64,000 nucleotides of DNA from an uncultured delta proteobacterium (GTDB taxonomy: Bacteria; Desulfobacterota; RBG-13-43-22). Made by a program: the position numbers and the translations under genes. The notes beneath the pieces were generated by a model. It did not search any database, was not told where the DNA came from, and saw only the letters and a program-made list of their open reading frames with translations. This document shows, in pieces, positions 15,992 through 37,238 of this stretch. Each line of letters opens with the position of its first letter. Position 1 is the stretch's first letter. The DNA lies in the NCBI GenBank assembly GCA_963790475.1, contig CAWBOS010000012.1, positions 1,344,001 through 1,408,000 on the forward strand. Direction: 5' to 3'.

Positions 15992-17398
15992 GAGCCTTTT
16001 GCAAAACTTATAAAAACTGCATGATGAAATATATCAGCAGGCGGTTATCCCAGTCGATTTAGAAATTTTGGGTCTTTCTTAACGACGATAGTCAGATTTG
16101 AGACTTTGGTAACAATTTTCAGGCATAGTTCTCCTCCTGACCTGAACTTTTCACCCCGTTCTTTGAAAATTTACTCAGGAAGCCAACTTTATCAACTGAT
16201 CCGCAAAGAGCGCCAGGACGCCAAACATGAGATGGAGATTGACTTTCAAGGCTCCTCGGACCATGACATTCTTGGCACCGAACTCTTCTTTTAACCGGCT
16301 ATTGAACCGTTCTGATGCTGTCCTTCCATTAAATCTTCTGGCCTCGTGGGGAGCCATAGGGATCACATCCTTACCGCGGAAGTTCTTGTCGATAATGGGC
16401 ACATGTCCCAGAGCTCTGCTGATTGCATAGATAGATCCAGCGTCATAAGCGGCATCCATCAAATCATAAAGATAATCCACCTTGGAACTAGTCATCTTCA
16501 TTAACGGTATAGCGACCTGGCTGTCATGAAGCGATGCTGCGGTCAAGACGACACTCACCGGCAATCCGCAATCATTAACATCGGCATGGAGTTTATACCC
16601 GACCCAGGTCTCTTTGTACCCTTTGGAGTTCTTCTTGGTCCCTACGTCGCAGTAAACCGGCAATTCTTTTAAGGCCTCTTCAACTGATTGCTCTCGTTGC
16701 CTGGTCAAGCGTTTGTCTTCCTTGGAATCACGGAGTTCTCCCTTGACTGGACGTCCTCTCTTCTTCGGCGCAGGCTTTTCTTTTACAGGCTTCTTAGTCG
16801 GCTTTTCCCGACCTTCTATGGCCGTTGCGTCTCGGGATATATGACCAACCAGTTCCGGCTTTAAACAACGTTCCACCAGGGCTTCGTGAACTTTTTCGCC
16901 AAGCCCCCCTTCGGCAAACTCCGCAAAGGCCCTGGAAAAAGTGGCCTCAGAGGGAATGTCGGATACCTTTTCGAACCCGCAGATGCGTCTTACATTAGAC
17001 GTCGTTTTCAAATGTTCAATGGTTGATCTGGTGAAGGAATGGTTATAGACCGTCTTGGCCACAAAAGCCCGCGCTATCGCTTGGCGCTCAAGGATCTTCC
17101 TCCCCATCCACTGATTTAAAGAACTCCGGGGAACATATCTTTCAACCTCAACCAGTTCCAATATCGTCACCAGCCGTTCCTCTTTTTCAGTCAAAGGCTG
17201 TTCCCAACATTCTTCTAAATCGGAAAATAAACCTTGTTGCAATCTACCCCTTAACCATGATACTTTTTTCCAGAGCTTCATCGGTGTCTCCTGTGTTTTT
17301 TTGTGTTCTTTCTAAACATCATCTTAACACAGAACCACCGCTGAGGCTCACTCTTTATGCTTGTCTATTCCCTAAAAATAGACTTTTGCAAGAGGCTC
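15992..17398 (-). mobile_element. Intact insertion sequence (IS5/IS1182-like), 1407 bp
   Basis: Terminal inverted repeats GAGCCTTTTGCAAAACT / GAGCCTCTTGCAAAAGT; 4-bp direct repeat AATA at 15988-15991 and 17399-17402. Confidence 0.9.
16175..17281 (-). CDS. DDE transposase
   Basis: SRDATAI, GYKLH, LMDAAYD, RTASERFNSRLK; lies inside the inverted repeats. Confidence 0.92.
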   Translation of the reverse strand: MKLWKKVSWLRGRLQQGLFSDLEECWEQPLTEKEERLVTILELVEVERYVPRSSLNQWMGRKILERQAIARAFVAKTVYNHSFTRSTIEHLKTTSNVRRICGFEKVSDIPSEATFSRAFAEFAEGGLGEKVHEALVERCLKPELVGHISRDATAIEGREKPTKKPVKEKPAPKKRGRPVKGELRDSKEDKRLTRQREQSVEEALKELPVYCDVGTKKNSKGYKETWVGYKLHADVNDCGLPVSVVLTAASLHDSQVAIPLMKMTSSKVDYLYDLMDAAYDAGSIYAISRALGHVPIIDKNFRGKDVIPMAPHEARRFNGRTASERFNSRLKEEFGAKNVMVRGALKVNLHLMFGVLALFADQLIKLAS

Positions 17399-19724: not shown

Positions 19725-20009
19725 TTAAGATTGCCCTTTTTTATTCGAGGATCGGCTTAAAATTCGTTTCAGTTCGTCGTCTTCCAGAAAAGAAGAGACA
19801 TTCCAACAAAAGGCCCGGAGTTCCTGACTATCCAAGCCCGGTTGCAACAATCTCAGAACTTCCTGGTACCCCCGGGTCTTCACCAGGGTTACCACTTCTT
19901 TAAGTTCAATTATCGATGCTGAATCTCCATTTTGATGGGCTCTTTCATAAGCCTTACAAAGATTATTGACTCTGGTAACCGAACAGCGTTTGCAACTTCG
20001 ATCTTCCAT
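19725..20009 (-). CDS. Hypothetical protein with N-terminal CxxC
   Basis: 94-aa ORF with ATG, on the same strand as its neighbours. Confidence 0.5.
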   Translation of the reverse strand: MEDRSCKRCSVTRVNNLCKAYERAHQNGDSASIIELKEVVTLVKTRGYQEVLRLLQPGLDSQELRAFCWNVSSFLEDDELKRILSRSSNKKGQS

Positions 20010-20156: not shown

Positions 20157-20783
20157 TTATTTTGCAGATCCCACGGTAAAATTCCCGGCCTTGAGTTCTC
20201 TCAGTAGGTCGGCCTCCGTGTCGATATTTTTTTTAAAATCGGTCACCCAGGTTCCCAGGGCGCCGATCTCATGAGCGTCACTTCCGGCGGTTCCCGGGAG
20301 CCCCAGCCTTTCGGCTACGTTTCCGGCGACTTCGTTTTCTTTCTCCGTCACCCGGCCGTTTCTTATTTCAACCGCATCCACGAATTGCAAACTTTTCTTT
20401 TTACAAGCCTGATCCAGGGTCAGTCCCAGTTGGCCCACCCCGAACATCTTGAACCCGCGAAAAGGATGGGCGGCAATGGAAAATCCATTGACAGATTTAA
20501 CGATCTCGCTCAACTCCTGAATCGTGATGATTCCCAGAATATTGCTCTCAAGACCGAAAACAAGGACATCGCCCTGGGCGGTGGTGATTTCATTCCCTCT
20601 GAATATTCTGATCCCCTTATTTTCGGCCAATCCCACCACCTCATCCCAATCCCACATTACTTGATGTTCGGTGAGGCAAAAACCGTCCAGACCGATCCGT
20701 TTCGCCTCCTGAATCAGTTCCGCCGGATTGATGTTGCTGCAGGAAGAGCGGGGGTAGGTGTGAACATGAAGATCAATAAGCAT
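20157..20783 (-). CDS. PHP-domain metal-dependent phosphoesterase
   Basis: DLHVHT, LTEH, AAHPFR, GSDAH. Confidence 0.9.
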   Translation of the reverse strand: MLIDLHVHTYPRSSCSNINPAELIQEAKRIGLDGFCLTEHQVMWDWDEVVGLAENKGIRIFRGNEITTAQGDVLVFGLESNILGIITIQELSEIVKSVNGFSIAAHPFRGFKMFGVGQLGLTLDQACKKKSLQFVDAVEIRNGRVTEKENEVAGNVAERLGLPGTAGSDAHEIGALGTWVTDFKKNIDTEADLLRELKAGNFTVGSAK

Positions 20784-20794
20784 CGGCGGCCCTT

Positions 20795-21211
20795 CTATCG
20801 TTGTCGGCCGGCCAGAAAATCTTCCTGATCCAGCTCCGGGTTTTCTTTGAGGGCCTTGGACAAATCTCTGGATAAAACGGCCGAATTAAGGCACCGACCG
20901 CATTCAATGATGATCTCGGCCAGATGTTCACAACCCTTTCGGCCTATCTCTCTCATCACCTTTTTATCCCATTCCGCCTCCCGCAAGGATAACCCGACGG
21001 CTGCTGGAAGGACTGAAATGGCCTGGGGACACACGAAATTAGTATAGCGCTTCATATTTCCCTGAAGCCGCAGTATGGTTCCGTCATCTATCCGCACATC
21101 CATGGAAATTTCCATGCCGTAAATATGATCCTCCTGGATCCCGTTGAATCGAATGGTGTTGTCGTCCAGAAATTCAGCACCGACCACTTGGGTTCGTTGA
21201 AAGGTTATCAT
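20795..21211 (-). CDS. DUF2889-like protein
   Basis: F-x-R start, CPQA and GRKGCEHL motifs; similar to the neighbouring gene. Confidence 0.6.
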   Translation of the reverse strand: MITFQRTQVVGAEFLDDNTIRFNGIQEDHIYGMEISMDVRIDDGTILRLQGNMKRYTNFVCPQAISVLPAAVGLSLREAEWDKKVMREIGRKGCEHLAEIIIECGRCLNSAVLSRDLSKALKENPELDQEDFLAGRQR

Positions 21212-21221
21212 GTTTTTCTCC

Positions 21222-21713
21222 TTATAGATTCAAACCCTGCATAATGGGGCTGTCATCCTGGAACGAAATACAGCTTCTGACCAGACGGGGATTGGTTTTT
21301 AGCCTTTCCCGGAGAGCGGCCAGTTTTTTTTCAGGGTCAGTGACCTTTTCCCCGGCTTCGATCCCGGGCCGGGTGAAATGGAGGATGACGGCATTGCTGG
21401 ATTCCAATACCGCATCCATCAGTAAAGAGCATCCCGAGGCTCCTCCCAAAAGGCCGGCCAGGATTTTGCGAAGACCGGACCCGATGCTGACCCCCTCCAC
21501 TTTTTTAATCTGTTTCGAAGCGTTACGGCAGGAAAAAGGTGGAAATTTTTCCAGCCGGGCTTCCGCTTCAATGATTTCCAGTTCAGGAGGCTGGACGATC
21601 AACCGAATTTCCGCCTTAAGCAAATCGTCGGTAAGCCGCCAGGAAACACTCAGGTCTCCATCCGGCAGAGGTTCGACTTCAATCACCTTGTTGCGTAAAA
21701 AATGTAAGGTCAT
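21222..21713 (-). CDS. DUF2889-like protein
   Basis: FLRNK, SC, GGASGCSLL, SCISF motifs. Confidence 0.6.
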   Translation of the reverse strand: MTLHFLRNKVIEVEPLPDGDLSVSWRLTDDLLKAEIRLIVQPPELEIIEAEARLEKFPPFSCRNASKQIKKVEGVSIGSGLRKILAGLLGGASGCSLLMDAVLESSNAVILHFTRPGIEAGEKVTDPEKKLAALRERLKTNPRLVRSCISFQDDSPIMQGLNL

Positions 21714-23143
21714 CAGAACTCCTTATTTTTTTCAAGTCGTTCTTTTTGAATGTTTTTTAATTTCAGCCAGACCTCTTCCACCTGTTTGCGGGTGTCGGCG
21801 AGGGAACCGGAGTTGTCCACCACCAGATCACAATACCCTTTTTTTTCTTCCACGGGCATTTGAGAACGGATAATCTTCAAGGCCAGTTCTTCATTGATGT
21901 GGTCTCGTTCCATTAACCTTTTTAACTGGACTTTCTCAGGGGCATAGACCATCAGCAGATGGTCGAACATGGCCTGCATATGGGTCTCGATTAGAAGGGG
22001 AATCACGACTTGGATGATGGCTTGTTCCTTCCCTTGGGACAATTGTTCAACCTGCTCCGAATAAGCCTCTCCGATTCTAGGATGGGTGAAACTTTCCAGT
22101 TTTTTACGTTTTTCCATATCCCGGAAAACGATTTCCCTGAGTTTTTCCCGGTCCAGCGTTTTATCTTTGGCCAACACTTGTTTGCCGAAAAAAGAAACGA
22201 TATCCTCGTAGGCTGGTTTGCCCGGCTCCACGACCACCCGGCTCAGGACGTCAAAATCAATCATCGGGGCACCCAACTCTTCCAGCATTTTGGCCACGGT
22301 GGACTTTCCCGTTCCGATACTGCCGGTGACGCCCAACAGGAGGCGGCCGGGGTGTTGACGCTGGCGGCCCGATCTGGCTTCCGATTGATAGGCGGCGGGA
22401 AATTGGCCGGCAATATCGGCCTCGGCCCCGGCATAACTGATGGGATAGCGGATTCCTCTCCGGTAAAGGGCCTCCATGCCTCTTAGGGCCTTATCGACCA
22501 ACGAGGGTGGAAGGGCCATGACTAATTCATCATCCTGGGCGTGGCCATAACGCCTTTCACCGTAACAGGGTATGGTCAAAGAAGGTTTTCCGGTGAGATA
22601 ACAACGGGCGATGGCATCGGAACACGAGGATTCCCCCACACAAAAGAATTCCATGACTTCATAATCTTCAAATTGAAGGGAATTGATCAAAAGCATCATC
22701 TGGGCCGGATTGGCATAAATCAGGACCATATCCGGATCGAAGGGGTTATAGACCAGGGGCGCCATGACCACGGCCTCAAATTTACCGATCGGTATTCGGG
22801 GAACACCGTTTTCAAACTTTCTCCCATCAGCACGGCTTTTGGTCCAGACTATACTTCTAAAGGTTCCGTCTTTCATGTAATCCGCTATGTCAGCTAGGCC
22901 GATAATCGATGGGCACATGAGACTCATAAAATCATCAAGCTCAGCCCCCACCGTCCAATCGAAATTCCGGACCAGATTGATGAGCTGGCACAGGGTGGAT
23001 TTGTGCTTCATCCGGCGAATAAAAGCGATTTTACCAATGTCTTCTTTGTGCTCAAGCAGTTTGAAGGCCACGGGAAAGGATTTGAGCCGCATTAACTGCT
23101 CCATCCTGCGGATCGGTTTCTCCCAATCTCGGGTTGTGCTCAT
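21713..23143 (-). CDS. coaE: DUF169 domain fused to dephospho-CoA kinase
   Basis: N-terminus PVAFKL/LCQ/ESSCSD/PCYGER; C-terminus GVTGSIGTGKST, LDREKL, THPRI, PLLIE, DNSG. Confidence 0.8.
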   Translation of the reverse strand: MSTTRDWEKPIRRMEQLMRLKSFPVAFKLLEHKEDIGKIAFIRRMKHKSTLCQLINLVRNFDWTVGAELDDFMSLMCPSIIGLADIADYMKDGTFRSIVWTKSRADGRKFENGVPRIPIGKFEAVVMAPLVYNPFDPDMVLIYANPAQMMLLINSLQFEDYEVMEFFCVGESSCSDAIARCYLTGKPSLTIPCYGERRYGHAQDDELVMALPPSLVDKALRGMEALYRRGIRYPISYAGAEADIAGQFPAAYQSEARSGRQRQHPGRLLLGVTGSIGTGKSTVAKMLEELGAPMIDFDVLSRVVVEPGKPAYEDIVSFFGKQVLAKDKTLDREKLREIVFRDMEKRKKLESFTHPRIGEAYSEQVEQLSQGKEQAIIQVVIPLLIETHMQAMFDHLLMVYAPEKVQLKRLMERDHINEELALKIIRSQMPVEEKKGYCDLVVDNSGSLADTRKQVEEVWLKLKNIQKERLEKNKEF

Positions 23144-23321
23144 GTTGGTCTCCTATCATGAAAGCAGGCAAGAGGCGAGAGGCTAAGAGATAAAAGAATA
23201 AACAGTAAAGCTTTTATCTCCCCTTTTATCTTCAACCTTTTACCTCGATCCTCGTTCCTTCGGATTCTCGCCTTCTTCCAAGGCTTACTATATTCTCTTT
23301 CCCGGGGCAATGAAAAAAAGG

Positions 23322-23672
23322 TTAAAAATTAAAGACCTTGGCCTCCGCCGCCAGATCAATCAAATGTGGTCCGCCGTCCAGGACCATATTGGAAAAGAAT
23401 TTGGCCTCGTCCACCTGACGGGCCTCGGCACAGGGGATTCAGACCCCGATAGGGATCTCGTTTTCCACCAAATAGGGCAGATAATCATTCGGGCAATCCC
23501 CGGTTGCGGTTTTGACGGTCATGTCCCGTGATGAATCGGCCCAATTGACTCCGTCGTCAATGAAAAAAATATTCACCTTATGCCCTTTGGTATGGGCGAT
23601 TTTACCGAACTGAAAACATCTTGTTGCGCTATCCACAGAATCTTTGCTTAACACGAATAAGAAATTAGCCAT
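23322..23672 (-). CDS. DsrE-family selenoprotein (116 aa; Sec at TGA 23439-23441; UxxC)
   Basis: Reading through the TGA gives IGV-U-IPCAEARQVDE...KVFNF, completing a DsrE fold (FFIDDGV); SECIS-like hairpin follows the TGA. Confidence 0.85.
23403..23424 (-). other. Putative bacterial SECIS element
   Basis: GGCCCGTC-AGGTG-GACGAGGCC hairpin starting 14 nt after the UGA, with G in the apical loop. Confidence 0.65.
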
Positions 23673-23693
23673 CTTTCCCTCCAGACAATCTAT

Positions 23694-24875
23694 TTAAATG
23701 CTAACAGAATGCTTTTTAACGATTTCAGCTATATCCATCACCCGGAGGCTGTCGTCCAATGCCTCCGCCTTGACGGCGTCTTCAAGCATCTTGGCGCATT
23801 GGGGGCAGGCCACCGCTATGATCTCGGCCCCGGTTTCCAGGGCCTCCCGGACGCGGACCCGCGCCGGACTGTCTTCCCCCGGACCGATGATATCGGTAAA
23901 GAAGTTCCCACCGCCTCCGCCGCAACAAAAGGCATTTCCCTTATTCCGGCGCATCTCTATGAATTCAAGGCCGGGGATGCTCATCAATATTTCTCGCGGG
24001 GGCTCATAAATTTGATTGTGCCGGCCCAGATAACAGGGATCATGATAAGTCACCTTGGCGCGAAATTCAGAAAGGGTTATCTTTTTATCTTTGATCAATC
24101 CGGCCAGGATTTCCGTAAAGTGATAGACCTCAAAATTTCCTCTCAGTTTGGGATAATCCTTTCTAAAGGTGTTCAGAGCATGGGGATCCAGGGTGATGAT
24201 TTTTTTAACATCCATTTTTTTGAATTCCATGATGTTATTTTCGGCCAATTGAGTAAAAAGCCCGGTCTCTCCCAGGGCCTTGACCTCATTCCCGTCGCAG
24301 GTCTCCCGATGGCCCAATATACCCACAGACAAGCCGACAGCAGACAGCAGGCCCCCCACGTTGCGGGCCATCCTTTGCCCCACCTCATCATAAGACCCGA
24401 CACAACCGACATAGAACAGATATTCCTGATCGGAAAATTCTGGCAGTCCGGTTCCTTCGGCCCATTTCCCTCTCTCATCTTGTGGCAGCCTATAAGGGTT
24501 ACCGTTCACAGAAATGGCCTTGAAATAATCCCGGACCTGCGGCGGGATCTTACCCTCATTGACCAATTCCGCCTTGGTCTCCTGAAATATTTCCGGCAGA
24601 TAGTCCTTGAATCTCGGAAAGACACACTGCTCCTTGCAATTGTCGCAGGCGGCACAGGAATAAAGGATCTCGGCAAAATGGGGGCTGGTTTCTATCTCTC
24701 CGTTGAGCCAGGCCCTGATAAGCCACATCCGGCCTCCCGGTGAATAGGTGTCCCAACCGAAAGCCTTATAAGAGGGGCAATTGAAATCCACATAATCTTC
24801 GGGGAATTTACAATATCCGCACCGAAAACAGCGATGAACGATCTCGGCGTGTTCTATTTCATGGATGGCGGCCAT
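23694..24875 (-). CDS. Fe-S CCG-domain oxidoreductase (HdrD/GlcF-like)
   Basis: CFRCGYC, CAACDNCKEQC, YHDPCYLGR, CCGGGGG, ACPQC. Confidence 0.88.
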   Translation of the reverse strand: MAAIHEIEHAEIVHRCFRCGYCKFPEDYVDFNCPSYKAFGWDTYSPGGRMWLIRAWLNGEIETSPHFAEILYSCAACDNCKEQCVFPRFKDYLPEIFQETKAELVNEGKIPPQVRDYFKAISVNGNPYRLPQDERGKWAEGTGLPEFSDQEYLFYVGCVGSYDEVGQRMARNVGGLLSAVGLSVGILGHRETCDGNEVKALGETGLFTQLAENNIMEFKKMDVKKIITLDPHALNTFRKDYPKLRGNFEVYHFTEILAGLIKDKKITLSEFRAKVTYHDPCYLGRHNQIYEPPREILMSIPGLEFIEMRRNKGNAFCCGGGGGNFFTDIIGPGEDSPARVRVREALETGAEIIAVACPQCAKMLEDAVKAEALDDSLRVMDIAEIVKKHSVSI

Positions 24876-24876
24876 A

Positions 24877-26256
24877 TCAGTTTACCTCCCAATTTCCGGG
24901 ATTCATGATACCCTGGGGATCCAGGTTTTTCTTGACCATCTGAAGCAACTTCCTGGTGTTGGGGTCCATTTTATTAAGCGTCATCTTCTGTTCCATATAG
25001 TTGGGCTTCCACGGGATCCCGCCCATCTCCAGGGCGAAGGCGGTGGCCTCATCCAGAGCCGATTTCACCCTGGCCATCATGGCCGGATCGGCCCGGTTAA
25101 AGGCAAAGGAGATGCTGAACATCATGGAATGCCCTCCGGAGATCACCCTGGCCGAACTGGCATAGAGGACCTCGTATTTTTCCGCCAGTTCAATGACCTT
25201 GGCGGCATATTGCGGAAAATGCTCAATCAAGGTGATTGGCCCGGAATACTCGAATCCTCCCCCTCTGGGCACATCGGCAAAGGCGGCGATCCCGCGCTGT
25301 GGCATCTCCAAAAGGGTGTCTCTCAAAAACTCAATACCCATGAACCCGCCGTCTTTCGAATCGATAAATTCCTGGACCGCATCCCAGATCATCTTCCTTT
25401 TGAACTCGATTTCTTCTTCAGTATCACCGGTGAAATAGATAGTGATATGATAGTTGTCCTTGAACAAATAAGGTCGGGGTTGAAACCAGACATTGATATC
25501 TTCCAGCATTTCCAGGTGAGTGAGCTTGAAGAGAATCTCCGAAACCAGATCGACCCGATCGGTGACGAATAATTCCACTTCCCTGATTTTTTTGTTCGGG
25601 TAGAGCTTCAACCCCACTTTGGTCAGTATCCCAGTGGTGCCCAGCCAGCCTAAAAAGAGACCGGATAGGTCCGGGAGGGTCGGGCCTTTGGAAAACCAGT
25701 AAGGTCCTATGGAAGGGGAGCCGATTTTGCAAATGTCGCCCGTCGGCAGTACGACCTCCAGACCTGTCACCATGTCGGAGTTGAAGCCGTATTGCTGGGT
25801 CAGCCGGCCCTGACCATGCAAGGATACGTTGGCGGCAATGGTTGTGGTGGGTGGGGCATCCGGCAGGCTGTGTCGCAGATTGGGATGATGATCTTGAAGA
25901 AAGGCCTTGAGCATTCCTTGAGAGGTACCCCCTTCAACCACGGCGTAGCGGGCCTTGGCATTGACTTCTAAAATTTTGTTCATCCGTTTCATATCCATGA
26001 CGATGCCCCCTTTTAACGGGATCACCAGGCCGGTCAAGGACATGCCATTTCCCATGGGTACGACGGGGGTCTTTTCCCTGTTGGCCAACTGAACCACTTT
26101 TTGGACCTGCTCCGTTGTCTTGGGAGCCACGACATAATCCGGGAGGTGCGGGGCTAATACTCCGGGGTCCCGCGAATAAAACCACAGTTCTTCGGGTGTA
26201 TTAGAAACGCCTCGTTCGCCGACTATTTCCTTGAGAGACTTCAAAATATCGCTCAT
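24877..26256 (-). CDS. FAD-linked oxidoreductase (GlcD/D-LDH family)
   Basis: PMGNGMSLTG, GLEVVLPTG, GTTGILTK, DPQGIMNPG; start MSDILK. Confidence 0.88.
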   Translation of the reverse strand: MSDILKSLKEIVGERGVSNTPEELWFYSRDPGVLAPHLPDYVVAPKTTEQVQKVVQLANREKTPVVPMGNGMSLTGLVIPLKGGIVMDMKRMNKILEVNAKARYAVVEGGTSQGMLKAFLQDHHPNLRHSLPDAPPTTTIAANVSLHGQGRLTQQYGFNSDMVTGLEVVLPTGDICKIGSPSIGPYWFSKGPTLPDLSGLFLGWLGTTGILTKVGLKLYPNKKIREVELFVTDRVDLVSEILFKLTHLEMLEDINVWFQPRPYLFKDNYHITIYFTGDTEEEIEFKRKMIWDAVQEFIDSKDGGFMGIEFLRDTLLEMPQRGIAAFADVPRGGGFEYSGPITLIEHFPQYAAKVIELAEKYEVLYASSARVISGGHSMMFSISFAFNRADPAMMARVKSALDEATAFALEMGGIPWKPNYMEQKMTLNKMDPNTRKLLQMVKKNLDPQGIMNPGNWEVN

Positions 26257-26257
26257 T

Positions 26258-27286
26258 TTATACGGCCCCCCTTTCTTTTTCACCGATGGCCATCTTGCAC
26301 AGGTCAATGATATGAATGGGTTTTAAGCCTTTTTTTGACACCTTTTCCGATAAAGACGTCTGACAGGCCGGACAGTTAAAGACGCAATACTCGGCCCCTG
26401 TTTGCAACATATCCTCTATATTTCTCTGCTGGACATCGTCGGCTAATTTATATCCGGAAATGGAACGAAGAATTTCAGCACAGCAAAGGGCATTTTCTTC
26501 CTGATAGGTCCTGTCCGGAAGTTCAACCCCGATGAGATCCAGTATTTCTTTAACCAAATGGTGTTTGTCGGGTATCAGTCGGTTGGAACAAGGGCGTTGA
26601 TAAGCGGCTTTGATGTTGAGGGGCTTTATTTTGTCTTTTAGTTCCCGCAATCTTTCCAGCAAAAAATCCATGTAATAGATCGGCCTAAAGGGGACCTCCA
26701 ATCCATAAGCCGGAGCGATGGAAGTGAAGGTGCCGTAACATTCATCATGGAGGCAAATTACCTCTTTCACGCCCAGCTTGGCAAAATTTTCGATAACCAC
26801 GGGAAGTCTCTCTTTGATGACCGACATCTTAGCAAAATGGCTGTGAACGGCCGGGCACATGAACTCGGCCCCGAACACCATGGCCGAGGACACCTCATTG
26901 AAGATTTCGCCTGTGCCCAATTCGCCGAGGGCCGGGATAAAACAACAGGAGACGGCTTTGTCTTTCACAGCCCCAACCATCTGCTTTCCCTGCATCAGGG
27001 TCATATTGATCCACTGGTTAGTGATGGGCCTGGGAGCGGTATAGATCCCCTTTTCTTCCCGACGCTCTTCGATGAGATAAAAGGGATGATTACCTCGGGG
27101 GCAATATTCCTCACAGGCATAACAGGTGACACAGGCCTGCAGCACAGGGGAGTCTTCCCCTTTGACCACCTTCATCATCTCCGCGTGGGCTTCCTTGACG
27201 CCGAATTTCATATATTGGCATTTCACCAGGCAATCTGCAGTGGGACAGGTGGCACAGACATTTTCATTAAATTTTAACGCTGGCAT
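26258..27286 (-). CDS. Fe-S binding CCG-domain protein
   Basis: CATCPTADCLVKC, CVTCYACEEYCP, YQRPCS, LCC, CPAC. Confidence 0.8.
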   Translation of the reverse strand: MPALKFNENVCATCPTADCLVKCQYMKFGVKEAHAEMMKVVKGEDSPVLQACVTCYACEEYCPRGNHPFYLIEERREEKGIYTAPRPITNQWINMTLMQGKQMVGAVKDKAVSCCFIPALGELGTGEIFNEVSSAMVFGAEFMCPAVHSHFAKMSVIKERLPVVIENFAKLGVKEVICLHDECYGTFTSIAPAYGLEVPFRPIYYMDFLLERLRELKDKIKPLNIKAAYQRPCSNRLIPDKHHLVKEILDLIGVELPDRTYQEENALCCAEILRSISGYKLADDVQQRNIEDMLQTGAEYCVFNCPACQTSLSEKVSKKGLKPIHIIDLCKMAIGEKERGAV

Positions 27287-29051: not shown

Positions 29052-30014
29052 TTACCAAGCGGAAAAAGTCAATTTCGTCCCCGACATATTTAAAAGAAAC
29101 TGCTTAGGCATTTCTTTTTCCATATGCATGACGGCCTTGCGGCCGGTGCAGTGGGTGGGGACGACATAAGTCGGATTGAATTTTTTTAATTCCTCCGATG
29201 TCCGCCCAATAATGTGCTCGAAGGCCGGACCGGAAAGATGAAAACCGCCCATAACGGCATGGATTTGATTGATACCAGTGACATCGATGGCGTGGCGAAC
29301 CGTATTAACGATACCGGAGTGGGCGCAGCCGGAAAGAATGATCAGGCCTTTGTCCTTGAGATTCACGACCACTGAGGTGTCGTCTTCGATGGGGTCCCAC
29401 TTTTCCACGCCATTTTCCTCAAAATGGGCGGCGGCCATGCCTTTCTCGAAGTCCGTCTGCCGGGGGATTTCCCCTAAAAACAGCACCGCGTTTTCCAGAA
29501 GTGGAGCAGGGGCTTTACTTTCCACAACCTTAAAACCTGCTTGTTCAAGACCTTCCTTGGTCAACTTGGGAAAATAGATTTTCAATTGGTCACCGATTTT
29601 GATATATCGCGGTGTTTTAAAGGCGGCGGGGTGCAGGACCAGCGGGACTTCTTTCTTGGCGATCATGGTCCCGAATTTTGCAATACCGCCGGTATGGTCG
29701 CTGTGGCCATGAGAGAGGACCGCCGCCTCCACCTCTTTCATATCCACGCCAAGGGCCTTGGCATTGGCCGCCGCCCCCTCTTCTGAAAATCCGAAATCGA
29801 AAAGCAAAGTATGGGTCCGGTCATCCTTGGTTGTTTTTACAACGGCACAATAGCCGTGTTCGGCCAGAATGGAGGTCCGAATACTTCCCTCTTTTACCGC
29901 CGCCGCCCGGTGGATGATGTCGCTGTTGTCCCCAGCGGTTATTTCTATGTAATTATCCTGCAGGGTCAGGATTTCGCATTTGTCGACTGCAGTTAACGGA
30001 TATTGGGTCATCAT
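29052..30014 (-). CDS. MBL-fold metallo-hydrolase
   Basis: AEHG, LSHGHSDHTGG, GCAHSG, GGFHL, PTHCTG. Confidence 0.9.
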   Translation of the reverse strand: MMTQYPLTAVDKCEILTLQDNYIEITAGDNSDIIHRAAAVKEGSIRTSILAEHGYCAVVKTTKDDRTHTLLFDFGFSEEGAAANAKALGVDMKEVEAAVLSHGHSDHTGGIAKFGTMIAKKEVPLVLHPAAFKTPRYIKIGDQLKIYFPKLTKEGLEQAGFKVVESKAPAPLLENAVLFLGEIPRQTDFEKGMAAAHFEENGVEKWDPIEDDTSVVVNLKDKGLIILSGCAHSGIVNTVRHAIDVTGINQIHAVMGGFHLSGPAFEHIIGRTSEELKKFNPTYVVPTHCTGRKAVMHMEKEMPKQFLLNMSGTKLTFSAW

Positions 30015-30484
30015 TCAAATTCCCCTTTCTTTACTTCTTCTTAGTCAAATGCCATGTTGGTCTTTCAGACTTCCCAAACCTTGCCGATCAGGTCTCGCAC
30101 AGCTGACCTTGATTTCTTCCGCCATAATCCGTATCCTCCTTTTTTTGAGCTTTGGGTTAAATGGTCAGGAATAATCTTCCTTTTGTCTTAAAAATGCCTT
30201 GAAATTTACAGTTTTGTTGTCGGTCCTTTTCCGACTGCCGAATTCTGGAGTTCACTCGGGGGCTTTTGAGGTCCAAATGACAAGTCCGGGCACTACCCGC
30301 TGTTGTAAAAAAACGGTCACCGCTATTACCCGTGGTCCAGAAACTATTTCCACTGGTAACGCAAAGTTGGCGAAAAAGTACCCACGATTTTTCCGATCAG
30401 GCGATAGATTTCCCGTCTCTCATCATAGTCCTTTTCTGATTAAAATTAATCCCCAACAAAATTGCCTTAGGTTGGATGCCTATT

Positions 30485-36797: not shown

Positions 36798-37238
36798 CTA
36801 AACTTCCTTTCGAGTCCTTTTGATAAAACCTTCAATAGCTTGACGCAGTGCGTCGCGGGCCAGAATGGCGCAATGCTGATGATCAGCCGGAAACACCGGC
36901 AGACTCTTGGCAATCTCTTTTTCATCAATATCCCAGGCTTCTTCCAACTCTTTCCCTTTGGCCAGGGCCGCGGCAATCGAGGCGCAGGCCCGGCTGACGG
37001 CACAGCCATTGACTTGAAATCGGGATTCAATAATCTTATTCCCTTCAACCCTTAAAGAGATCTCCATGGTATCACCGCAGGGACCGGTTACTTTTCCCAC
37101 ACTGTCCGGGTGATCCAAAATCCCTTCGTTATGAGGACCTAGCCAGAATTGGACAACCGGCCGGCATGAATCTTTTGTTGAATTGTCTTCTTGTGCCGCT
37201 CCAGGATGGGAAGAAAACCGGCTCGTCGCTATTGACAT
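36798..37238 (-). CDS. NifU/IscU-like Fe-S scaffold
   Basis: TGPCGDTM, GCAVSRACAS, HQHCAIL. Confidence 0.85.
   Translation of the reverse strand: MSIATSRFSSHPGAAQEDNSTKDSCRPVVQFWLGPHNEGILDHPDSVGKVTGPCGDTMEISLRVEGNKIIESRFQVNGCAVSRACASIAAALAKGKELEEAWDIDEKEIAKSLPVFPADHQHCAILARDALRQAIEGFIKRTRKEV

Follow-up and report, generated by a model that had tools for sequence, protein, structure and literature searches.

Eight genes run in one direction over positions 20157-27286 of the window (the 64,000-nucleotide stretch of DNA from an uncultured delta proteobacterium that was analysed here) and raise the question of whether they encode a single pathway. From the sequence alone, they had been read as one unit in which oxidation of an organic substrate is coupled to a thiol/persulfide carrier. 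All eight open reading frames were found on the minus strand with intergenic distances, in transcription order, of 1, 1, 21 and 178 nt, a 1-nt overlap, 10 and 11 nt. The co-directional run, with gaps mostly of 21 nt or less, is therefore real. Pfam domains above the curated cut-offs are CCG (both chains), FAD_binding_4 with FAD-oxidase_C, DsrE, DUF169 with CoaE, DUF2889 (both proteins) and PHP.

Conservation of the gene run

The run was compared across 80 loci anchored on DUF169, which are the best 80 of 236 loci and have near relatives among them. None of these 80 best loci shows the gene order of the window and none holds all eight genes. The FAD/CCG trio was observed in three loci and DsrE in three others, never together, and so the single eight-gene pathway does not hold up. 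DUF169-CoaE, DUF2889 and PHP occur without the trio in 77 of the 80 loci (33 of the 36 with flanks of 6.5 kb or more on each side) and likewise without DsrE in 77. It is very probable that the run consists of two independent things, namely a four-gene core made up of DUF169-CoaE, DUF2889a, DUF2889b and PHP, and the trio plus the selenocysteine-containing DsrE protein as neighbours.

The closest three relatives (L001-L003, 88-93% identity) have DsrE directly before DUF169 while the trio is absent at this site, which makes the trio the variable piece. An intergenic spacer of 178 nt (23144-23321, minus strand), whose counterpart in these relatives is 166-175 nt long, was rejected as a module boundary on the same ground. 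The sequence-only reading had split the run at this spacer and named independent occurrence of the two halves as evidence against itself; the right half does occur independently, although the break does not lie at the spacer. Folding of the spacer was not above shuffles, promoter and terminator scans remained at chance level and no sigma-54-like site was found. An Rfam search of the region and of seven of the 80 loci gave no match, and there is no tRNA gene within the 64-kb window. Plasmid searches returned one distant DUF169 and no match to the FAD subunit or DUF2889a. An Atlas search without DUF169 clusters gave GGGtGRT, at 0.90, as its sole lead.

The four-gene core

The four genes of the core form a conserved unit that is kept together across many anaerobic bacteria. 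DUF2889 and PHP adjoin DUF169-CoaE in 63 of the 80 best loci, downstream of the anchor in 29 and upstream in 34, and in 47 of the 51 loci with full flanks. The core thus occurs in two gene orders, with DUF2889a before DUF2889b in 62 of 62 loci. DUF2889b and PHP are joined in one open reading frame in 28 of 65 extracted loci, and PHP-family domains were present on all 120 longer DUF2889b homologs among the matches listed. On a tree of 71 fusion proteins the order or fusion state changes six times, yet the gene association persists. As an example, one locus (L024) combines a kinase fusion of the order-A clade with a DUF2889b-PHP protein of the fused type. Pairwise identities across the four proteins are also correlated (rho 0.65-0.87 over 54 sequences, a statistic which ignores the species tree). 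Exceptions among the 80 loci include L008 and L015, which are without PHP, L042, which is without DUF2889, L029 and L059, which are without both, and L058, in which only a fragment is present.

Most hosts of the core belong to the Desulfobacterota, and the adjacency was also observed in bins of Spirochaetia, Armatimonadota and Bacillota. The flanks are otherwise variable between loci and no client enzyme family was found to travel with the core among the flanks of the scanned loci. At least 38 of the 80 loci have acyl-CoA enzymes encoded in the flanking DNA, a count uncontrolled for background in genomes that are rich in such genes.

The DUF169-CoaE fusion (476 aa; 21713-23143, minus strand) carries an N-terminal Cys-rich DUF169 domain and a C-terminal dephospho-CoA kinase domain, and CoaE follows DUF169 in 79 of the 80 best loci. 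The kinase scores 182.9 bits against the TIGR00152 equivalog cut-off of 65.55 and lies below the PRK03333 cut-off (167 against 215). Residues G274, K280, D298, R302, H354 and R413 are invariant in all 71 fusions. By equivalog score and catalytic residues, this domain is a predicted dephospho-CoA kinase. The alanine of the D-A-D motif found in the E. coli and Aquifex enzymes is replaced by phenylalanine in 68 of the 71 fusions, giving the D-F-D variant of the window, and by leucine in the other three. Judged from the motif, this replacement may signal a changed substrate.

The four cysteines of the DUF169 domain (C52, C77, C174 and C193) are kept in 71 of 71 fusions. Its predicted model has a pLDDT of 96.8, and the best fold match is weak (Z 4.2, rmsd 5.4, 166 aligned residues) and may reflect a common arrangement. 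Most of the weak fold matches are thiolase or ketosynthase enzymes with Z of 4.2 or less and rmsd of about 5 Å. The domain appears to be without a solved structural relative, as no sequence relative was found in the PDB and Foldseek with the model returned nothing at E 0.001 or better. An internal repeat found no support (probability 0.4%, within shuffles). Elsewhere, a distant DUF169 gene precedes an acyl-CoA ligase gene and another DUF169 is fused to MaoC domains.

The PHP protein is short (208 aa; 20157-20783, minus strand). Residues H6, H8, C15, H40, E65, H106, R109, D169 and H171 are invariant in 64 of 64 sequences and D72 is present in 63 of them. By our own mapping, the metal site has C15 in place of Asp and D72 in place of His. 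The metal ligands and the phosphate-binding arginine assign this protein to the PHP metallophosphoesterase superfamily. It was rejected as a Cv1693-like 3',5'-nucleoside bisphosphate phosphatase (NF041577) because its score of 36.2 bits is far below the cut-off of 400 and because some stretch of about 95 residues in the solved homologs has no counterpart in its alignments, so that the nucleotide-binding insertion domain is absent. In RNase AM the insertion domain binds AMP; pAp, which is hydrolysed by Cv1693, is a by-product of CoA. The best PDB profile match was PsfC, a non-hydrolytic PHP enzyme.

DUF2889a (163 aa; 21222-21713) and its paralog DUF2889b (138 aa; 20795-21211) lie on the minus strand between these two genes. 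DUF2889a has R7, D29, E104, R143 and C148 as invariant residues, and D28, C61, C94, H96 and C104 are conserved in DUF2889b. The DUF2889a model shows a beta-meander-plus-helix fold, similar to that of IscU, the lipoate-ligase C-domain (LplA-C) and FMN-binding domains, with a degenerate metal site. It matches human ISCU2 with Z 7.4 and rmsd 3.0 over 94-96 residues, within the range of a possibly common arrangement, and is tied with the matches to FMN-binding domains and to the C-domains of lipoate ligases (Z 6-7.5). Residues D28, C61, C94 and H96 of DUF2889b lie, by aligned ranges, roughly at what we take to be the IscU ligand positions; these putative ligands are conserved in DUF2889b and degenerate in DUF2889a. 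Profile comparison of DUF2889 with IscU-like proteins by hhalign gave no match (probability 0.2%, with a shallow four-sequence profile). For DUF2889b, no PDB sequence relative was found, Foldseek with the model yielded no hit with E of 0.001 or less and there is no invariant Ser/Thr acceptor. A published guess of a "clathrin appendage" fold for DUF2889 does not fit the alpha/beta model.

The FAD/CCG trio

The trio comprises a ferredoxin and CCG protein (CCG1, 342 aa; 26258-27286), a VAO/PCMH-family FAD oxidoreductase (459 aa; 24877-26256) and a second ferredoxin and CCG protein (CCG2, 393 aa; 23694-24875), all on the minus strand. For the FAD gene the ATG at 26256 is the most probable start, since 113 of the 120 closest homologs are 459 aa long and the others 455-468 aa. 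The trio is read as a flavoenzyme of VAO/PCMH-like type in its own right, with Fe-S proteins as partners. It was observed near the core in L053 and in L065/L077, which belong to two other branches among the 80 best loci, and it lies on the opposite strand in L065/L077. Identity to L065 is 88% for the FAD subunit, 73% for DUF169 and 56% for CoaE, and therefore the trio has another history than the core.

Two activities had been proposed for the trio and neither is borne out. A C-terminal His/Glu metal motif is the mark of 2-hydroxyacid dehydrogenases. The FAD subunit has no histidine after residue 376, carries G-G-I-P-W-K-P-N at the site of this motif and scores 111 against 568 bits for the GlcD/LctD equivalog; its PDB matches of the VAO/PCMH and LctD types score alike (90-94 bits). 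Heterodisulfide chemistry of the HdrB/HdrD kind calls for two intact CCG motifs per chain. The C-terminal motif is intact in both CCG proteins, and the N-terminal one is altered in CCG1 and degenerate in CCG2. A Cmh-type p-cresol hydroxylase in Desulfobacula was also considered and found no support in the literature consulted.

The DsrE-like selenoprotein

The DsrE-like protein (116 aa; 23322-23672, minus strand) had been called a selenoprotein, and our analysis upholds this call. Reading through the in-frame TGA at 23439-23441 places Sec78 in a U-x-x-C motif. The Pfam DsrE domain spans residues 4-116 across this codon, and all three DsrE relatives found retain both the TGA and the reading frame behind it. 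A bacterial SECIS-like hairpin (23403-23424, minus strand) with a 5-nt AGGUG loop follows 22 nt after the UGA and agrees with the bSECIS model, which specifies a loop of 3-9 nt with G in one of its first two positions, a distance of 16-37 nt from the UGA and an upper stem of 4-16 bp (PMC13188914). By its folding energy alone the hairpin did not stand out from shuffled sequences (z -0.92 to 0.28). Its codons are under synonymous constraint: 7 of 7 are identical in the four sequences, whereas elsewhere this holds for 32 of the 85 codons of invariant residues. In addition, another UGA read-through gene lies nearby in the relative L001. DsrE, together with MOSC and DUF364, is a neighbour of the core in the clade of the window.

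Function of the core

For the core, we infer every substrate, reaction and physical contact. We see about an even chance that its function is directed at coenzyme A. Our preferred explanation, held somewhat short of that, is a unit which maintains the CoA pool by salvage or repair, with the trio and DsrE separate from it. The hosts would be anaerobes living on acyl-CoA catabolism. The PHP enzyme, with DUF2889b as its partner, would take the 3'-phosphate off a CoA derivative or pAp, work at the thiol or acyl end would fall to the Cys-rich DUF169 domain and the putatively metal-binding DUF2889 pair, and the fused kinase would re-phosphorylate the product to CoA. The trio would be a mobile flavoenzyme in which the VAO/PCMH-type FAD subunit passes electrons to the two ferredoxin/CCG subunits, and both it and Sec-DsrE would be core neighbours in a small clade only. 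The CoA role is favoured by the PHP protein, in which the metal ligands and phosphate-binding arginine described for RNase AM/Cv1693 are retained, by the pAp hydrolysis of Cv1693, by the invariant kinase residues, by the acyl-CoA enzymes in the flanks and by the acyl-CoA ligase and MaoC associations of other DUF169 genes. Against it count the low score of the PHP protein as a pAp phosphatase, the missing insertion domain, the two exchanged ligands and the PsfC match. The exact cycle is rather doubtful; a kinase and a phosphatase together could amount to a futile cycle. It is unlikely, though conceivable, that the core is a new CoA-editing machine, which would remove the 3'-phosphate from damaged or specialised CoA, process the thiol or acyl group at a metal centre in DUF169, a domain of unsolved fold, with the DUF2889 pair feeding this centre in the manner of IscU, and re-phosphorylate the product, or that it makes an unseen CoA variant, with the trio as an occasional redox client. 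What survives of the sequence-only reading, besides the selenocysteine call, is the joint action of kinase and PHP on a CoA-like molecule, which agrees with the strong linkage of the four right-hand genes and the recurrent DUF2889b-PHP fusion.

Other explanations account for parts of these data. The core might serve metal, Fe-S or sulfur trafficking or assembly, with the DUF2889 proteins as IscU/SufU-like scaffolds or sulfur acceptors, the four-Cys DUF169 domain as client and a housekeeping CoaE fused to it. The ISCU2 match of DUF2889a, the presumed ligand positions of DUF2889b, the four invariant DUF169 cysteines and the DsrE, MOSC and DUF364 neighbours are consistent with this role. We nevertheless find it unlikely, since the fold match is tied with other domains, profile similarity to four IscU-like proteins is absent, no cysteine desulfurase occurs among the labelled recurring neighbours (78 of 110 families scanned) and the PHP fusion is left unexplained. 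Quite unlikely is a core that builds a modified CoA or loads a CoA-derived group, in which DUF2889 would be a carrier, DUF169 a transferase and PHP would clear the nucleotide by-product. The FMN-binding and lipoate-ligase matches of DUF2889, the Phe/Leu replacement in the kinase and the thiolase/ketosynthase matches of DUF169 point in this direction, whereas the low Z of the latter may reflect a common arrangement, DUF2889b lacks an acceptor Ser/Thr and no accompanying client family was found.

The fusion could also be a plain housekeeping dephospho-CoA kinase, adjacent through co-regulation to a separate unit formed by the other three genes. It passes TIGR00152 (183 against 66 bits), and L029 and L059 have the DUF169/CoaE genes without the other core genes. 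This account is improbable because the adjacency survives the swap in gene order, extends to the Spirochaetia, Armatimonadota and Bacillota bins and sits in variable flanks, unlike a housekeeping locus. Least probable by far is one eight-gene pathway in which oxidation by the trio is coupled to Sec-DsrE or a CoA-like cofactor as the thiol/persulfide carrier. The tight co-directional spacing and the three trio-bearing loci in two other branches speak for it, as do FAD and DUF169-CoaE homologs found twice on equal-sized contigs of at least 5 kb (12375 and 26417; shifted controls gave a mean of 0.12 and reached 2 in 3 of 400), and the trio is probably near the core in two close relatives as well. 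Against it stand the absence of trio and DsrE from nearly all of the 80 best loci, DsrE without the trio in L001-L003, the opposite strand of the trio in L065/L077 and the single clearly intact CCG motif per chain.

The four-gene core may thus be an undescribed system that maintains or modifies coenzyme A, and no description of it was found in the literature searched. Two families of unassigned function, DUF169 and DUF2889, gain a strong and testable context from two independent fusions, one with a CoA kinase and one with a phosphoesterase. Most hosts are Desulfobacterota in which fatty acids and aromatics are mineralised via CoA thioesters and in which the maintenance of the CoA pool has received little attention. 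Tests are practical because the cultured Desulfatibacillum alkenivorans DSM 16219 carries the full core. With the eight-gene reading corrected, the trio and DsrE are to be studied separately from it.

Comparison with known systems

The trio shares the FAD_binding_4 and CCG domain types with GlcDEF/LctD and HdrB/HdrD and differs in that its equivalog scores are far below the cut-offs, the His/Glu metal motif is absent and each chain has a single CCG motif that is clearly intact. A closer likeness in make-up is the heterotrimeric flavoprotein BzS1_12970/80/90 of anaerobic benzene degraders, also an operon of PCMH-type FAD and cysteine-rich Fe-S subunits in sulfate reducers (PMC13416013). Compared by subunit make-up, that complex has two FAD subunits and one CCG subunit where the trio has one FAD and two CCG subunits, and the trio was therefore not assigned to this type. 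The DsrE-like protein agrees with the DsrE-like selenoproteins of Desulfovibrio vulgaris, likewise a deltaproteobacterium, in carrying Sec in a DsrE-family protein (PMC1794560); nothing essential was found to differ, and it adds a member to this group in a gene setting new to it.

Within the core, DUF2889 weakly resembles IscU/SufU scaffolds, the lipoate-ligase C-domain and FMN-binding domains in its beta-meander plus helices, and DUF2889b adds conserved Cys, His and Asp residues. Unlike IscU/SufU, it forms a paralog pair, with no profile similarity to these scaffolds and no desulfurase among the labelled neighbours. The PHP protein has the His/Glu/Asp pattern of the trinuclear site and the H-x-x-R phosphate arginine of Cv1693 and RNase AM, but it is only 208 aa long without the insertion domain, uses Cys and Asp for two of the ligands and belongs to a family often fused to DUF2889b. 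The kinase shares the P-loop, the catalytic Asp, the lid arginines and the H-P and P-L-L motifs with CoaE (TIGR00152; PDB 2if2 and 1vhl) and differs from it in the fusion to DUF169, in D-F-D instead of D-A-D and in its DUF2889 and PHP neighbours.

Linkage and gene order of the core

The eight ORFs occupy 20157-27286 of the minus strand, coordinates that were checked in the window. In transcription order the first five are spaced by 1, 1, 21 and 178 nt; an overlap of 1 nt and gaps of 10 and 11 nt follow. Every domain call made in the sequence-only reading lies above the Pfam cut-offs. Within this run, the DUF169-CoaE fusion (21713-23143), DUF2889a (21222-21713), DUF2889b (20795-21211) and PHP (20157-20783) form a four-gene CoA-kinase module that is real and strongly conserved. 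A single genome scan anchored on the DUF169 domain gave 236 confirmed stretches, of which the best 80 were kept; these come mainly from Desulfobacterota bins, with others labelled Spirochaetia, Armatimonadota and Bacillota. Across these loci, matches to in-frame queries were observed for CoaE (79), DUF2889a (69, including the spurious L044, later excluded), DUF2889b (67), PHP (66) and DsrE (3). DUF2889 and PHP both adjoin the anchor in 63 of the 80 loci. They lie downstream of it in 29 and upstream in 34, a group that takes in L058 with a DUF2889a fragment only; of the 51 loci with full flanks, 47 have both beside the anchor. Among the DUF169-anchored loci, PHP is absent from L008 and L015, DUF2889 from L042, and both from L029 and L059. 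DUF169-CoaE is apparently frameshifted or split in the L059, L044, L009 and L077 bins, through assembly error or decay.

DUF2889a and DUF2889b are paralogs (hhalign 99.4%), the former preceding the latter in 62 of 62 loci. Of the 65 loci with an extracted DUF2889b, 28 have it joined to PHP as a single ORF, and PHP-family domains were found in all 120 of the longer DUF2889b homologs listed (120 of 349). CoaE is present on 119 of the best 120 DUF169 homologs listed (search range 261-833 aa); remote DUF169 relatives are mostly stand-alone. Two acyl-CoA ligases, DUF2889a, DUF2889b-PHP and DUF169-CoaE are consecutive in Desulfatibacillum alkenivorans DSM 16219, and on a Cupriavidus plasmid a DUF169 gene precedes an acyl-CoA ligase. 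An acyl-CoA enzyme family occurs in the flanks of at least 38 of the 80 loci (raw count), the family labels coming mainly from a scan of 78 of the 110 family representatives.

Other neighbours were also noticed. A metallo-beta-lactamase-fold gene in the window (29052-30014, minus) is 40-45% identical to the gene directly after DUF169-CoaE in six loci of the upstream gene order (L040, L042, L056, L069, L070 and L079), and may therefore be an accessory core member. After PHP, one lineage (L010, L013, L017, L020, L022, L023, L034 and L035) has a 4HBT thioesterase, in most cases a NUDIX hydrolase, and a glycerophosphodiesterase, in keeping with a CoA-turnover theme. Immediately upstream of the core, the unfused clade of the upstream order (L041, L052, L058, L061 and L066) has an acetyl-CoA hydrolase/transferase gene. 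A 94-aa ORF (19725-20009, minus) with C-x-x-C, one further Cys and no Pfam match is conserved at 83-86% in L001 and L003, ahead of a sigma-54 activator. A DDE transposase (16175-17281, minus) between this activator and NuoE/NuoF-like genes is missing there in L001. Upstream, an IscU/NifU_N-like gene (36798-37238, minus) amid Fe-S/MinD-type ATPase and NifB/NifX-like genes is part of a broader metal/sulfur-handling region.

Conserved residues and proposed role

All 71 fusions have the CoaE catalytic residues unchanged, and the Ala position of D-A-D is occupied by Phe in 68 of them and Leu in 3. In DUF2889b, D28, C61, C94, H96 and C104 are conserved in at least 65 of 66 sequences. DUF169 retains C52 in 99, C174 in 98, C193 in 82 and C77 in 54 of 105 diverse sequences. 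Its predicted model (pLDDT 97) gave nothing at Z >=5 against 48,161 chains, the weak matches being mostly thiolase/ketosynthase. The top profile match of the core PHP is PsfC, an oxidative enzyme. Membership of the pAp-phosphatase equivalog was excluded on the equivalog test. With two substitutions, the core PHP retains the metal ligands of RNase AM and Cv1693 together with their Arg (PMC9410882); pAp is a CoA-metabolism by-product hydrolysed by Cv1693 (PMC8268124).

Core linkage and residue conservation are direct observations, and we favour CoA-pool maintenance as the role of the core, for which we infer all of the chemistry and binding. PHP and DUF2889b would take off the 3'-phosphate, DUF169 and the DUF2889 pair would use metal centres to act on the thiol or acyl end, and CoaE would regenerate CoA. 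As a rival, the core could be a metal/Fe-S trafficking unit. The predicted DUF2889a model (pLDDT 89) matches IscU with Z 7.4 and rmsd 3.0 over 94-96 residues, a score tied with lipoate-ligase C-domains and with FMN-binding domains near; such values may reflect a common fold only, and a profile match between DUF2889 and IscU-like sequences is absent. The core could also be a cofactor- or carrier-modifying system, or its kinase could be housekeeping with the other genes as passengers. A quick tree was made from the 71 fusion proteins of full length, with 9 short members of the family excluded; order and fusion state change 6 times on it and the genes remain together.

The trio and the selenocysteine DsrE

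The sequence-only reading had joined all eight genes in one pathway coupling oxidation of an organic substrate to a thiol/persulfide carrier. This is not supported, since the complete trio and DsrE each occur in 3 of the 80 DUF169-anchored loci and the trio is missing beside DsrE-DUF169 in L001-L003, the closest relatives of the window. All three trio loci belong to the 36 whose flanks reach 6.5 kb or more on both sides. In L053 a trio paralog (44-52%) is upstream, with DUF364, CoA-transferase and amidohydrolase genes between, and in L065 and L077 trio orthologs (69-88%) are on the opposite strand, the L077 copy being frameshifted. L065 also has a putative C_GCAxxG_C_C redox protein (L065:11613-12014) in the space that separates DUF169-CoaE from the convergent trio. 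The gene orders DUF364-MOSC-DsrE-DUF169 (L001), MOSC-DsrE-DUF169 (L002) and histidine kinase-DsrE-DUF169 (L003) indicate that the trio fills a position between MOSC and DsrE that is empty in these relatives, and insertion is likelier than loss. Two close-homolog pairs (P0010/P0272 and P0013/P0276) are on contigs of identical size, where shifted controls gave 0.12 matches on average, and the trio plus core layout is therefore probably common to a few close relatives; a third same-size match is 2399 nt and cannot hold both genes.

The selenocysteine assignment of DsrE (23322-23672, minus) was upheld: an in-frame TGA (23439-23441) has to be read through, which gives U-x-x-C, and the TGA and downstream frame are also present in L001-L003. 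The hairpin that follows has the geometry of a bSECIS, the bacterial Sec-insertion hairpin, as defined in PMC13188914. Its codons are identical in 7 of 7 cases against 32 of 85 elsewhere in four sequences (naive p 0.001, which is optimistic because these are related), and its folding energy is unexceptional. DsrE-like selenoproteins are a family already known (PMC1794560). A peroxiredoxin with an in-frame UGA, probably Sec, was observed at L001:6584-7306, and a short window ORF (30045-30125, minus) resembling its first 12 residues is probably a deletion scar.

In the trio, the FAD subunit (24877-26256) has 2168 homologs at E <=1e-60 among 8000 scored candidates, the best 120 at 85-96% identity. 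Its top PDB matches are VAO/eugenol oxidase/PCMH enzymes, and LctD and glycolate oxidase score about the same. Hydroxyacid dehydrogenases carry a C-terminal His/Glu motif, which this subunit lacks. As a GlcD candidate it fell below the GlcD cut-off. Hydroxyacids and phenolic or benzylic compounds are equally likely as its substrate. In each of the two ferredoxin/CCG chains (26258-27286 and 23694-24875) a dicluster ferredoxin domain accompanies a single clearly intact CCG motif, an arrangement more in keeping with electron transfer than with disulfide cleavage of the HdrB type.

Comparison with known systems

The four-gene module is apparently undescribed: no description was found among the full-text matches listed from open PMC/bioRxiv, and subscription journals and most supplements may mention the locus. 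The passages on DUF169 in PMC5322559, PMC8762117, PMC4001038 and 10.1101/648329 name it only in passing, as do those on DUF2889 in PMC4520260. For the trio, the nearest described arrangement found is the BzS1 heterotrimer, whose stoichiometry (PMC13416013) is opposite to that of the trio.
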